Source of the DNA: Eledone cirrhosa
Lineage: Eukaryota
NCBI GenBank assembly: GCA_964016885.1
Contig: CAXHJY010001411.1
Span: 1 to 46,765, forward strand
Reading direction: 5' to 3'
Length of the DNA: 46,765 nucleotides
A program made the translations under genes and the position numbers. Below the pieces are notes generated by a model, which saw only the letters and a program-made list of their open reading frames with translations, was not told where the DNA came from and ran no database searches. This document shows, piece after piece, positions 5,776-46,765 of this stretch; position 1 is the first letter of the stretch; every line of letters starts with the position of its first letter.

Positions 5776-5857
5776 AATCAAAGAAGGTGTAGTAAGATAC
5801 CAGGTGGACGTTAACACACCAGAGTACTCGGTACTTACGGTATTAGAGTGGGTAATA
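5776..5857 (-). mobile_element. Family B repeat, diverged fragment
   Basis: CCAGGTGGAC...GTACTC...TAGAGTGGGTAATA matches the reverse complement of 17838-17975. Confidence 0.7.
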
Positions 5858-5926
5858 TACATATATATACATATATATATATATATACATATTTCGTTTC
5901 TGAATTTATATATATATGTATATATA

Positions 5927-6126
5927 TAAAAGGTACAATCAGTACAGTATATGGAAGGTATATATTAAGTTAACGCGTGATATAGCAGGAAGAGGGTCTT
6001 AACGTTTCGGACGGGAGTCCTTCATCAGAAGAAAGAATGAGAACTAAGATAGATTGAGGGGACGGGTGGGTTGGAATTGGAAAAAATGTCTTTAGATAAA
6101 AATAACATGCCCATACATGTTGACAT
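5927..6126 (-). mobile_element. Family A repeat (PLE pLTR-like, hammerhead-bearing)
   Basis: Homologous to 14318-14540 (+), 31653-31860 (-) and 41223-41307 (-, fragment); all abut microsatellites. Confidence 0.8.
5997..6032 (-). ncRNA. Minimal type I hammerhead ribozyme motif
   Basis: Minus strand reads UCUU-CUGAUGA-A-GGAC(UCCC)GUCC-GAA-ACGU-U-AAGA: intact core, 4-bp stems I and II, loopless palindromic ACGU stem III. Confidence 0.75.
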
Positions 6127-6130
6127 ATAT

Positions 6131-6236
6131 AATTGTTTCTACTTTAGGCACAAGGCCAACACATACCCAGTTCATTACTGGTACTTTATTTTATCGACCC
6201 CGTAGGGATGAAAGGCAAAGTCAACCTCGGCGGGGA
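6131..6236 (-). mobile_element. tRNA-derived SINE, 5'-truncated, with 17-bp TSD
   Basis: Matches 19511-19696; ATGTTGACATATATAAT occurs at 6117-6133 and 6238-6254. Confidence 0.9.
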
Positions 6237-6885: not shown

Positions 6886-7002
6886 AACGAAGGAAATGTG
6901 GTAAGGAACCAGGTGGACCATAACGCACCAAAGTACTCATACTTAGGGTATTAGAGTGGGTAATAGGAACGAGTAGGACCCCGAGGTCCTACTCGTTCCT
7001 AT
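6886..7002 (-). mobile_element. Family B repeat, truncated, ending in an 18-bp fold-back hairpin
   Basis: Reverse complement of about 17875-17975; 6963-6980 pairs perfectly with 6985-7002. Confidence 0.8.
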
Positions 7003-7678: not shown

Positions 7679-7869
7679 TCATTACAACAGAGGTCCGGTG
7701 ATATTCAGATTCCAGAGTCGAGCTAAATCGATACAGATCGAACCTTGAGCTGATCAATAGCGAAATGCGCGTCACTACTCAATAAAATGAAGACATTACA
7801 AATAGCCCTTATATTATATATATATATATATACATATATATAGATATATATATATAGGTATATATATAT

Positions 7870-7944
<75 letters not shown>

Positions 7945-8048
7945 TACATATATATATTTATAGGTATATATATATATATAATACATTATAAAAAAAGAAG
8001 AAACATTATATATAAATAAAAAGATATAATATACCTAAATTTCCTCAC

Positions 8049-8144
8049 TATCCTCGACTACGTAGTTTCGTGGCTATTATGCAAAAACATTACATCATAG
8101 AGATGTAGTATTTTTGTGAGGTTTGCCGACTTATCAAGAGCATA
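8049..8144 (-). ncRNA. Type I hammerhead motif, U3:A8 variant (mirror copy)
   Basis: Reverse complement of 8341-8436 with the same TTGATAA core and one mismatch in stem I. Confidence 0.62.
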
Positions 8145-8340
8145 TCTCAATTAGACTTTCAAAACACGTCCGTAGGACGCGAGATATTATATCTCTTTAT
8201 TTATATCTAATGTTTCTTCTTTCTTTATAATGTATTATATAGCTCTGTGTTTGACCGCTGTATCACGTGATAAGTTCCCCCTCCGCCTTTCGGGATTCTT
8301 TCTCGCGTCCTACGGACGTGCTTTGAAACTCTATATGAGA

Positions 8341-8436
8341 TATCCTCTTGATAAGTCGGCAAACCTCACAAAATTACTACATCTCTATGATGTAATGTTT
8401 TTGCATAGTAGCCACGAAACTACGTAGTCGAGGATA
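8341..8436 (+). ncRNA. Type I hammerhead motif, U3:A8 variant
   Basis: UAUCCUC-UUGAUAA-GU(C)GGC...GCCAC-GAA-ACUACGUAGU-C-GAGGAUA: 7-bp stem I, palindromic stem III, GUC cleavage triplet at 8427-8429. Confidence 0.7.
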
Positions 8437-8658
8437 ATGAAGGAATTTAGGTATATTATATCTTTTTATTTATATCTAATGTTTCTTCTTTCTTTATAAT
8501 GTATTATATAGCTCTGATATTGAATCAATCTAATCCATTCAGATTATTTTGTCCCTATTATTAATAGAGCAACAAACGGTTAAGGTTGGCACCACACAAA
8601 TTCAGGGATATATGTGGGTATATGCACGTATTCGCATGTGTCTCTGTATTTCTTTGTT

Positions 8659-10499: not shown

Positions 10500-11146
10500 T
10501 TGGCAAAGACTGGGCAACACCGTTACCACTCTGCCACAAACCTCCACAGAATCCAACTCACAACCTACTTCAGCGATCAAACCTATGACATTATGATTAT
10601 AAGCACAAAACCCTTACCACTAGGCCACAGAACACATCAGACAGCCCATTCCAGGAATCGAATACACGACGTTATGATTGGAAGTCCAACTCCCTTACCA
10701 CTGGAACAAGGTGAAATGAAGTGCCTTGCTCAAGAACACAACACATAACCAAGTCGATTAATCGAACCTAGGACATTACGATCGAAAGCCCAACACCCTT
10801 ACCATTAGGCCACGCATCTCCACAGAACACAATACAGACAATTCTAGGAATTGAACACAGAACTTTCCAATGGCAAAACAAACACCTTTACCACTAGGCC
10901 ATGTAGCTCCACACAACACAACACACAGCTCAGTCGAGGGATCAAGCCCAGGACATTACAATGGTAAAACCAACACCTTACCGCCAGGACATGTAGCCCT
11001 ACAGAACACAACCATAGAACCGAGCCCAGAACACTACAAATGTAAAACCAACACCACCACACTTACCACTAGGCCATGTAGTTCTACAGAACACTACAAA
11101 TGTAAACCCAACACCACCACACTTACCACTTGGCCATGTAGTTCCA
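10500..11146 (-). repeat. Tandem array of degenerate tRNA-like SINE heads (about 60-100 bp period), one with SINE body
   Basis: About 8 recurrences of CC(A/G)CTAGGCCA-like motifs (reverse complement of A box TGGCCTAGTGG). 10700-10820 has an A box, a GGTTCGA B box and a TTGTGTTCTTGAGCAAGGCACTT body. Confidence 0.75.
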
Positions 11147-13545: not shown

Positions 13546-13713
13546 GTTACGTTCCTTTGCGTTCTGATTTCAAATCCCGCCTAAATTAGGTTTGCCTTTC
13601 ATCCTTACTGAGGTCGATAAATAAAGTACCAGTAATGCGCTGCAGTCGATTTAATAGACTGTCCCCTCCCCCCAAATGTCTGGCCGTGTGACTATAATAG
13701 TAATCATTATTAT
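13546..13713 (+). mobile_element. tRNA-derived SINE, diverged long-form subfamily
   Basis: TTCAAATCCCGCC...GCCTTTCATCC...GGTCGATAAATAAAGTACCAGT, with an extra GTCGATTTAATAGACTGTCCCCTCCCCC segment and an ATT tail. Confidence 0.85.
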
Positions 13714-16234: not shown

Positions 16235-16330
<96 letters not shown>

Positions 16331-16543
16331 CGTTTCTGAATTTGTTTAGCAAGATTCTTTATCTGAAATCGTGTGTTGAAACCGATATTGTTATACTTTG
16401 GGAGGGTCATGTTGCCAATAAGAAACACACGCACCAGTTGCTTTCACTTCAATTTAATTTAATATATATTTATAAATTTACAAATTTATAAATTTCTGGT
16501 TGGTTGGTTGGTTCCACAACCAGATAGTTGTTTATATATATAT

Positions 16544-16588
16544 AGTCATAGTTCTTTCGTCACACACTCTGTGACCTCTTCAGTGACT
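16544..16588 (-). ncRNA. Minimal type I hammerhead motif (mirror copy)
   Basis: Exact reverse complement of 16717-16761. Confidence 0.65.
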
Positions 16589-16716
16589 GGGGATTTCTTT
16601 CTTCGTTTCTGTGCCTTTCCTTTCTTCTATCCTACACCATTTTGTTTGTGTGTGGGTTCACAAAATGGTGTAGGATAGAAGAAAGGAAAGGCACAGAAAC
16701 GAAGAAAGAAATCCCC

Positions 16717-16761
16717 AGTCACTGAAGAGGTCACAGAGTGTGTGACGAAAGAACTATGACT
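16717..16761 (+). ncRNA. Minimal type I hammerhead motif
   Basis: AGUCA-CUGAAGA-G-GUCACA(GAGUG)UGUGAC-GAA-AG(AA)CU-A-UGACU: 5-bp stem I, 6-bp stem II, CUA triplet. Confidence 0.68.
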
Positions 16762-16912
16762 ATATATATATAAACAACTATCTGGTTGTGGAACCAACCA
16801 ACCAACCAGAAATTTATAAATTTGTAAATTTATAAATATATATTAAATTAAATTGAAGTGAAAGCAACTGGTGCGTGTGTTTCTTATTGGCAACATGACC
16901 CTCCCAAAGTAT

Positions 16913-17035
<123 letters not shown>

Positions 17036-17837: not shown

Positions 17838-17973
17838 GTCCAGAATTAGCCGTCGAAACGGCTTGAGCTCAGCCGTCGGGGTCTTACTTGTTTCTATTAC
17901 CCACTCTACTACCCTAAGTATTGAGTACTTCGGTGCGTTGTGGTCCACCTGGTTCCTTACCACATTTCCTTCG

Positions 17974-17975
<2 letters not shown>
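17838..17975 (+). mobile_element. Family B repeat, 138 bp, in (TA)n, carrying the 3' half of a hammerhead
   Basis: Same length and ends as 31394-31531; contains GAA-ACGGCT(TGAGCTC)AGCCGT-C. Confidence 0.85.
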
Positions 17976-19452: not shown

Positions 19453-19510
<58 letters not shown>

Positions 19511-19514
<4 letters not shown>

Positions 19515-19696
19515 GTTTCTACTTTAGGCACAAGGCCAGTAATTACCCAGTGCATTACTGGTACTTTATTTTATCGACCCCGTAAGGATGAAAGGCAAAG
19601 TCAACCTCGGCGGGATTTGAACTCAGATCGTAAAGGGACGTAACTATGCTGGAAAGCATGGCGTCCGACCCTCTACCGGAACTGACAATCCACCGC
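19511..19696 (-). mobile_element. Near full-length tRNA-derived SINE (octopod-type)
   Basis: Minus strand has B box GAGTTCAAATCC, body GCCTTTCATCCTTACGGGGTCGATAAAATAAAGTACCAGT and 3' end GCCTTGTGCCTAAAGTAGAAACAATT; at least 9 copies or fragments in the window. Confidence 0.92.
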
Positions 19697-20775: not shown

Positions 20776-21028
20776 CGTGTGTGTGTGTTTGTATATATAA
20801 TATATATGTATATATATATATATTTATGCATGTATGTAGGTATATATGTGTTTAAGTATGTATGTATGTATATATGTGTATATAAATAAACATATCTATG
20901 TGTATATATATATATATATACATATATACAAATGTGTGTGTGAGATGGTGGAGATCAGAACTGCTACACAACAACAACAACAACCACTACAACCACAACC
21001 ACAACAAGAACCTATGATCCATAGATAT

Positions 21029-21206
21029 AATTGTTTCTACTTTCGGCACAAGGCCAGCAATTAACCAGTACATTACTGGTACTTTATTTTATCGACCCCG
21101 TAAGGATGAAAGGCAAAGTTAACCTCGGCGGGATTTAACTCAGACCGTAAAGGGCCGTAACTATTTGCTGCAAAGCATGGCGTCCGACCCTTCTATTGAT
21201 ACTGCC
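21029..21206 (-). mobile_element. tRNA-derived SINE with 13-bp TSD
   Basis: Matches 19511-19696; CCATAGATATAAT occurs at 21019-21031 and 21205-21217. Confidence 0.92.
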
Positions 21207-22163
21207 ATAGATATAATGGCAGACATGGTATTTCTTCTTCGAAACCTTATCAATGGCGGCCCCGTGATTGGACGATGTGAAGAGGAAGGGGTGAGGATGT
21301 GTGTAGAGGTACTCAAGGAATGGTGTGGAGTGGAGGAGAGCAAGGGCAGTGTGCTTTAGAAGGGGCTGCGAGGGGTGAGGATGTATAGAGGTACTCAAGG
21401 AATGGTCTGGCGGAGAGGAGAGAGGAGAAGAAGGGCGTGGAGTGGAGGAGAGGAGAGGCAGAGTGGTGTGTTATAGAAGGGGCTGCAATTACCTGCCAAA
21501 TATTTGACCAATCTGTAATATGAAAGACTCGTTAACAGACTTAATATGCCAAATTAGACCATGTTCTCCACTTTGCTTAATTAACTCTCAAATCGACAGA
21601 AACTCCATTTCCACAAATTACTTTCTTCTATTCTTATCTCGACCCTGTTCAAACCTGTCCAACCCTGTCCATTCCTGCCCATCCACCCCCGTTTCAGGAG
21701 GGCCTTATACCGACCTCCGACCGCCCTCCATCCTCACCACACCATCGCCAAGTCATTATGCCGACCTTCATCCATCAACACCCCACCATCGCCAACATGA
21801 AACCCTTACGCCGACATCCCTCCACCCTCACCCCCACCATCACCAAGGCCTCACCCCCGCCAACACCAAGTACTTCCATCCACCTCCTTCCACCCTCACC
21901 CACCATCATCAAACGCTAGCGCCCCACCCTCGCCTTGACGGTGTAGTTTGTGGCGGTGTTGTTGTTTTTCTTCTTTTTCTTGTTGTTCATATCTCTCGGA
22001 TAACTTCGTTAAAGGTACACACGACCGAGATATACTCAACCACTTGTGTGTGTGTGTGTGTTTGTGTGTGAGTATATATGTATATGAGTATGTATGTATG
22101 CGTACATGTATACATGTATACATGTATTATGTATGCATGTACGTACGTACGTATGCATGCATG

Positions 22164-31393: not shown

Positions 31394-31531
31394 GTCCAGA
31401 ATTAGCCGTCGAAACGGCTTGAGCCCAGCCGTCTGAGTCCTACGCGTTCCTATTAGCCACTCTACTACCTTAAGTATTGAGTACTTTGGTGCGTTATGGT
31501 CCACCTGGTTTCTTACCACATTTCCTTCGTT
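31394..31531 (+). mobile_element. Family B repeat, 138 bp
   Basis: Colinear with 17838-17975; its first bases GTCCAGAATTA are duplicated just upstream at about 31366. Confidence 0.88.
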
Positions 31532-41884: not shown

Positions 41885-42128
41885 AACTTTGAATGTAAAG
41901 TGACATAACTCTATTCTGCAAAACATGGCGTATGAAGCTCTACCGCAACTGCAAATCAATCGCTCTTAAATAATTGTTTCTCCTTTTGGCACAAGGCCAG
42001 CAATGATCCCAGAAAGGATGAAAGGCAAAGTTAACCTCGGTGAGATTTGAACTCAGACCGTAAAGAGGCATAACTCTATCCTGCAAAGTATGGCATTCGA
42101 CCCTTTACCGATACTACCAATCTACCAT
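41885..42128 (-). mobile_element. Internally deleted SINE (41970-42128) plus adjacent 5' SINE fragment
   Basis: AATTGTTTCTCCTTTTGGCACAAGGCCAG...GGATGAAAGGCAAAGTTAACCTCGG...TTTGAACTCAGA; CATAACTCTAT(T/C)CTGCAAA occurs twice. Confidence 0.85.
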
Positions 42129-46475: not shown

Positions 46476-46530
46476 CCCTTAGTCAGGTGGTAAGTGTTTT
46501 GGACTTACGAGGTTAGCTTGGTCTTTCTTC

Positions 46531-46765
46531 TTTACGGGGTCGATAAAATAAAGTACCAGTAGTGTACTGGAGTCGATTTAAACAATTTTCTCCTCCCGCA
46601 AATTGCTAGCTTTCTAACCTAAATCAGAAACAATTGGGGTCGATAAAATAAAGTACCAGTAATGCACTGGGTAATTGCTGGCCTTGTTTTTACTTTTGGC
46701 ACAAGGTCAGCAATTACCCAGTGCATTACTGGTATTTTATCGACCCCGTAAGGATGAAAGGCCGA
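46531..46765. mobile_element. Cluster of SINE 3' fragments: two on + and one on -, the last running off the window
   Basis: GGGGTCGATAAAATAAAGTACCAGT at 46536 and 46636; inverted copy at 46688-46765. Confidence 0.88.

Follow-up and report, generated by a model that had tools for sequence, protein, structure and literature searches.

An inverted pair of hammerhead motifs that both carry UUGAUAA in the catalytic core raises the question of what kind of sequence this is: a ribozyme arrangement kept for its activity, or a trace of the way in which a mobile element was inserted. We examined the pair within the window, by which we mean the whole 46,765-nucleotide stretch of Eledone cirrhosa DNA analysed here. 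The window is AT-rich (GC 0.15-0.41 per 2 kb), dense in microsatellites, and looks like intergenic animal DNA. The reading that we favor, at a probability of roughly three in four, is that of a Penelope-like remnant with a type I hammerhead in which U3:A8 is family-wide.

The hammerhead motifs and their predicted fold

The hammerheads at 8049-8144 on the minus strand and at 8341-8436 on the plus strand are both real. Each arm has the core U3 U4 G5 A6 U7 A8 A9 (8348-8354 on the plus strand, with U3 at 8348 and A8 at 8353; 8137-8131 on the minus strand) together with G10.1-C11.1 and G12 A13 A14 A15.1, and each satisfies the type I core requirement (U4 G5 A6 N7 A9, G12 A13 A14, A15.1-U16.1, H17), the minus arm being the same as the plus arm at all 15 of the 15 numbered core positions checked. 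In the plus arm GAAA (8416-8419) leads into the stem III palindrome (8419-8428) and C17 (8429); the C17 of the minus arm lies at 8056. Positions 3 and 8 are complementary in both arms, and U3:A8 may well form a Watson-Crick pair within the core. The earlier note's reading as hammerheads, its numbering and the U3:A8 covariant thus proved correct at every core position checked in both arms.

Stem I of the plus copy consists of 7 bp without an internal loop (8341-8347 with 8430-8436), with pair probabilities of 0.66-0.99. The minus arm carries a G at 8141, the equivalent of 8344, which produces a G·G mismatch, so the claim of a 7-bp stem I in both arms holds perfectly for the plus arm only. Stem II (8355-8415) extends from G10.1 at 8355 to C11.1 at 8415 with 5 bp and a bulged C8357, and surrounds a 50-nt insert (8361-8410) that contains a hairpin at 8369-8403. 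Its outer three pairs have probabilities of 0.77-0.78 in the monomer ensemble and its inner two 0.13. The piece 8355-8416 folds with z = -3.24, and 0 of 200 shuffles were equally stable, in agreement with the structured insert of about 50 nt described previously; the stability of the full 111-nt motif is unremarkable (z = -1.21 and -1.30). Stem III is a 10-nt palindrome from A15.1 to U16.1, perfect in both arms as the earlier note had it. In the monomer, the three-helix fold open at stem I reaches -19.4 kcal/mol for the plus arm compared to a minimum free energy of -20.9 kcal/mol, and -18.6 compared to -21.5 kcal/mol for the minus arm, stem I mismatch included.

A type I descriptor, composed after the motif had been seen, matched both arms and two further sites in the real window. 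After block-wise dinucleotide shuffling (200 shuffles), chance matches averaged 0.025 per window, and none of the shuffled windows held a descriptor match with an inner palindrome of at least 6 nt. Rfam returned no hammerhead among 6 matches at E <= 10 at the locus, and none among the best 150 of the 485 matches listed for the whole window; the miRNA and snoRNA matches that it did return were set aside as microsatellite or hairpin noise, below gathering scores. The expectation that standard searches would miss the motif is therefore right for Rfam, but a U3-A8 descriptor was already in use in 2014 (PMC4209133). Nor is the Rfam miss specific to U3:A8, since a hammerhead with a canonical core at 16722 was missed too (0 hammerheads among 2 matches). 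Rfam models overlook such hammerheads irrespective of their core.

Layout of the locus and other hammerheads in the window

The locus consists, in order, of a (TA)n tract, an inverted truncated copy, a short truncated direct copy and a main copy with an extension. The (TA)n microsatellite (7813-7980; TA fraction 0.91 over 7880-7980) is the likely insertion target. The inverted, 5'-truncated copy of the repeat end (7975-8184, minus strand) runs into it and corresponds to 8301-8510 on the plus strand; these arms of 210 nt differ at 12 positions (94.3% identity) and stand head-to-head, with their 5' ends facing. At the very base where the inverted arm begins, a partial direct copy also begins (8184-8254, plus strand; 71 nt, 94%), which repeats 8453-8523 at a spacing of 269 nt, is without a hammerhead, and shares four letters (TTGA) with the main copy at their junction. 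The main copy of the repeat end occupies 8251-8610 on the plus strand, its right end being approximate (in 4 of 4 runs, 29 of 29 bins are covered, with loose ends behind 8617). It alone carries a tail-like extension of about 100 nt, from 8511 to about 8610, which is not found in the inverted arm. Family contigs that stop at 8510 and continue into (TA)n, exactly as the inverted arm does, numbered 9 in one run and 14 in another.

A partial tandem with an adjacent head-to-head, inverted and truncated copy is thus present at the locus, and opposite-strand joints occur in other copies of the family (8295/8593 in 133 and 122 reads that share one start, and 8276/8470 in a single contig). The same combination, with a tail at one end and a bias toward microsatellites, has been described for Penelope insertions (Craig et al. 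2021, PMC8557442), among which head-to-head is the most frequent inverted arrangement (Arkhipova et al. 2013, PMC3846280). The locus resembles the head-to-head insertions of the terminal repeats (pLTRs) of endonuclease-bearing Penelope-like elements in its partial tandem, in the inverted 5'-truncated copy next to it and in having a tail-like extension on one side only, and it also has the microsatellite target and the junction microhomology in common with them (PMC8557442, PMC3846280). In contrast to the published insertions, it has no coding body and its tail is about 100 nt rather than 30-40 bp (PMC8557442). A target-site duplication is unreadable within (TA)n.

It seems, then, that the locus would be what is left of a Penelope-like retrotransposon that inserted into a (TA)n tract, a short remainder that encodes no protein and consists of three terminal-repeat pieces: the main copy with its tail (8251 to about 8610), the partial tandem (8184-8254) and the 5'-truncated inverted copy (8184-7975). 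The inversion would be a by-product of insertion rather than a ribozyme device, because the motifs are encoded on opposite strands and would pair with each other in a read-through RNA. A cis-dimer of the two arms was ruled out on the same grounds, 94 of the 96 plus-arm hammerhead bases being paired with the other arm in read-through RNA. The earlier note's picture of a bare inverted pair overlooked both the extra partial direct copy and this origin.

Two stretches next to the plus-strand hammerhead deserve mention. Upstream, 8259-8322 is G+C-rich and contains a C-rich box, a TCACGTGA palindrome and, at 8306-8318, a small hairpin; it is possibly a promoter of the element. Just past the hammerhead, 8451-8511 of the plus strand looks intron-like by eye (GT at 8451, a branch-point-like CTAAT at 8476-8480, a pyrimidine run, and AG at 8510-8511). 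Introns are kept in Penelope elements. Such signals also arise easily in AT-rich DNA.

A second head-to-head hammerhead pair, which the earlier note missed, lies at 16385-16920. Its arms (16385-16645 on the minus strand and 16660-16920 on the plus strand) show no difference over about 260 nt and carry a canonical C3-G8 core at 16722 (plus) and 16583 (minus), with A as N17. There is (TA)n on both sides and an extension of about 55 nt on the left arm only. We found no sequence relation to the first pair (best blastn E 0.31). Since the second, unrelated C3-G8 pair shows the same layout, insertion in this genome repeatedly yields inverted hammerhead pairs, whatever the core variant. A short frame from 16410 on its minus strand could be the start of an ORF, and no homologue of it was found; for the 41-aa frame 16443-16321 of this element, a protein search gave 2 candidates, none at E <= 0.01, which is a weak negative. 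The end of the extension (16326-16341) recurs as a short exact piece beside (TA)n at 5893-5908, perhaps a heavily truncated insertion of the same family.

On the minus strand at 6028-6001 there is also a solitary minimal hammerhead, with a C3-G8 core, an extra base after A9, a 4-bp stem II, a 2-nt palindromic stem III and a 4-bp stem I, which fits the published Penelope minimal consensus. Elsewhere we noted a dispersed short repeat family with copies 80-95% alike (5788-5854, 6887-6984, 17838-17974 and 31394-31530), another of the same degree of likeness (6125-6234, 13546-13642, 19505-19694, 21025-21207, 42008-42126 and 46508-46762), and a degenerate tandem array at 10515-10977 with a spacing of 81-104 nt.

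Variation among family copies

Family data came from 4 runs of one organism (3 samples, 2 studies), matched to 8255-8620 at 80% likeness. Two of these, from the same sample, yielded 587 and 466 contigs; these contig runs contain only 0.24-0.26 of the sampled words, and may represent a sister species or other subfamilies. The remaining two, from two further samples, yielded 1727 and 1862 RAD reads, which derive from few loci (at most 36 starts per row). Summed contig depth is not a copy number. The repeat is a dispersed multicopy family: each of two runs contains hundreds of its contigs, mostly at 90-99% likeness, and most family records are less than 95% alike.

The 40 of 138 variant rows listed include none in 8341-8357 or 8411-8454, and hence none in the core at 8348-8354. 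Coverage of 8346-8358 amounts to about 575-600 reads per RAD run, and variant rows with much lower support were still listed. The listed rows place 1 variant (8358) in 46 core and stem positions compared to 10 in 50 insert positions (Fisher p = 0.008), a test that covers these 40 of 138 rows and in which conserved anchors are favored by local mapping. Five of the 12 places with listed indel rows also fall within the insert (8372, 8376, 8385, 8408 and 8410). Since the listed variant rows avoid the core while the insert varies, we infer that most of the family has U3 and A8; a smaller share with C3 or G8 may lie in the other 98 of the 138 rows. The proposal that UUGAUAA is the family consensus has thus fared well as far as the 40 of 138 rows listed extend.

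Within the insert hairpin (8369-8403), the same 40 of 138 rows, which are unphased, contain 6 substitutions: those at 8374 and 8395 close mismatches, those at 8379 and 8380 lead to G·U wobbles, that at 8370 breaks a pair, and that at 8392 pairs only jointly with the change at 8380. In part of the family a G is inserted behind 8434, in the 3' strand of stem I, where it would create a bulge; the insertion occurs in 11 and 7 contigs and is reflected in the loose ends of 161 and 145 reads. A one-base gap at 8574 is frequent in family reads.

The earlier note had also argued that core changes shared by diverged arms point to selection on activity. This argument is invalid. Given 12 differences in 210 nt, two given sites would remain unchanged between the arms by descent alone with a probability of 0.89, and the shared U3 and A8 are therefore uninformative on selection. 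Moreover, position 8340 is A in both arms and G in 99-100% of family reads and contig depth; because this A is common to both arms against the family G, it points to the arms being sister copies of one template lineage. Support for a constraint on the core comes from the family data and not from the pair of arms.

Relation to known elements, activity and alternative explanations

A type I hammerhead with a palindromic helix III, as described for Penelope terminal repeats, is present in the repeat, and from such sequence features its membership of the Penelope-like elements appears very probable. The closest described hammerheads are those of Schistosoma, whose Penelope-like elements contain about 1,300 U3-A8 motifs, found via the Cercyon element of Schistosoma mansoni, including dual motifs, one on each strand, at distances of 100-700 bp (PMC4209133). 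Fig. S3 of that paper has 56 rows, 2 of them U3-A8, and one of these has UUGAUAA (S. mansoni(3)); the family Sm3 comprises 761 motifs. Our locus is like the Cercyon-type hammerheads in being type I and in its UUGAUAA core, opposite-strand pair and dimer-type stem III. However, the Cercyon-type motifs, as described there, lack a real stem III, have loops 2 of 4-9 nt and carry an additional base behind A9 (PMC4209133), whereas the present locus has a 10-nt palindrome, a 7-bp stem I and a 50-nt insert, and the link to a reverse transcriptase (RT) is absent from the window. It also lacks the extra base between A9 and G10.1 that is typical of Penelope minimal hammerheads.

Palindromic variants of helix III appear in the Aedes aegypti, Saccoglossus, Drosophila and kuruma shrimp rows of Fig. 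S3 in PMC4209133. A 10-nt palindrome from A15.1 to U16.1, like the present one, is found in 4 of the 56 rows, three from Aedes aegypti and one from Saccoglossus, but all four have C3-G8 cores, unlike the U3-A8 found here. The bulged base in helix II recalls the Penelope hammerhead of D. virilis (PMC4209133). Natural U3-A8 hammerheads with the same covariation have been reported (Perreault et al. 2011, PMC3088659), but in the part of that paper drawn on here they are not tied to the present architecture. Poseidon of Anolis carolinensis (Frangieh et al. 2024, PMC11167929) shares with our locus a hammerhead near the repeat end, an AT-rich target and two preferred 3' ends that define the tail; Poseidon differs in its C3-G8 core, its ORF starting in stem II and its measured, protein-assisted activity. 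Calling U3:A8 rare was therefore an overstatement, as U3-A8 cores, opposite-strand pairs and long palindromic stems III have each been described for Penelope-like elements (PMC4209133, PMC3088659). With the core variant, the palindrome and the inversion each already published for such elements, the locus is no new ribozyme class or arrangement.

The 50-nt structured insert in stem II is the sole feature of the locus for which we did not find a published counterpart in the literature surveyed. Loop 2 reaches at most 9 nt in the 56 rows of Fig. S3 in PMC4209133, which come from a search whose descriptors limit loop length, and no description of a stem II insert of about 50 nt was found in a survey that ran without the principal publication on such variants (Lünse et al. 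2017). One tentative idea, which we consider rather unlikely, is that a high-copy Penelope-type family with a conserved 50-nt stem II hairpin module would use it as an RT docking site or switch, so that cleavage is gated by protein or by dimerization.

Protein evidence was sought throughout the window. Of 501 stop-to-stop frames of at least 50 aa, 320 were dropped for low complexity, and the 181 frames scanned gave no Pfam family, and neither RT nor GIY-YIG, an absence that would be expected at the locus of a truncated insertion. The 36-aa frame 8534-8641 had no match among 1.84 billion representative proteins, again a weak negative. An ORF starting directly after the hammerhead was considered and rejected because all three plus frames have stops within 8430-8560 and many family reads have the gap at 8574. 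Metagenome contigs and viral contigs, scanned with exact 21-nt patterns, yielded 0 loci each.

As to mechanism, stem III as a hairpin costs +1.5 kcal/mol (pair probability 0.07), and as a 10-bp intermolecular duplex it is predicted at -12.9 kcal/mol, energetics that would fit the dimer model for Penelope hammerheads (PMC4209133; review PMC6765202). We infer both Penelope identity and the dimer mechanism. The hammerhead would be the terminal-repeat type I ribozyme of the family, in which U3:A8 would replace C3:G8 family-wide as a fixed, structure-preserving swap. It is predicted to cut after C17 (8429), at a low rate and most likely as a dimer held by the palindromic stem III or with the help of the element's protein. 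Minimal Penelope hammerheads cut poorly in vitro (PMC4209133), and that of Anolis Poseidon is reported to cut only with the element protein and to leave no RNA ends in public reads (PMC11167929).

Several other explanations deserve weighing against a Penelope-like remnant with such a ribozyme. That the inverted pair is an artefact of assembly or of read fold-back, or the motif a product of chance, is highly improbable. Inverted Penelope structures are hard to assemble (PMC8557442), none of the listed contigs spans the locus and the second pair (16385-16920) has identical arms, as an artefact would suggest; yet the arms studied here differ at 12 sites, and fold-back is disfavored because at 8321, 8334, 8374 and 8408 the minus arm carries letters that are common or dominant in family reads, which such an event cannot yield. 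A chance motif is hard to reconcile with 0.025 descriptor matches per shuffle. It is also quite unlikely that the locus is a non-autonomous tandem retrozyme, built of 269-nt units and yielding circular RNA by hammerhead cleavage, even if the direct repeat 8184-8254/8453-8523 is spaced within the 170-400 nt range of animal retrozymes (PMC7229834) and retrozymes have been proposed to be derivatives of Penelope terminal repeats (bioRxiv 10.64898/2026.07.22.740005). A retrozyme has at least 2 head-to-tail units, each with a hammerhead, and the locus has a single plus-strand hammerhead: the duplication is only 71 nt and adds no further hammerhead on that strand. A joint leading back from about 8520 to 8255 is not among the 3 listed, the upstream junction lying outside the stretch compared (from 8255). 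Family reads continue to 8617, and loose-end sequence upstream of 8276 agrees with the window only to 8251, 4 of the next 5 letters being different.

The Penelope-like origin could also be right with a U3:A8 motif that is catalytically dead or irrelevant, its core being kept for protein binding, by overlap with a promoter or through the recent spread of a master copy. Hammerhead cutting is dispensable for the insertion of Anolis Poseidon in vitro (PMC11167929), one scan of a type III hammerhead found positions 3 and 8 rescued only by G3:C8 and not by U3:A8 (PMC9901934), and the inner stem II pairs are improbable in the monomer ensemble (P 0.13). We nevertheless regard this as unlikely. Family copies are mostly less than 95% alike, yet the variation in the 40 of 138 rows listed spares the core, and a constraint on pairing would predict two transitions at just the positions that pair, as seen here. 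Natural U3-A8 ribozymes, with their compensatory covariation, have been reported to be active in vitro (PMC3088659).

On the preferred reading of a Penelope-like remnant, the repeat is one more animal repeat family with U3:A8 family-wide in place of C3:G8. A U3:A8 family of this kind is a natural test of whether Penelope hammerheads are retained for catalysis. With three hammerhead families in 47 kb, C3-G8 beside U3-A8, a direct comparison would be possible in one genome.
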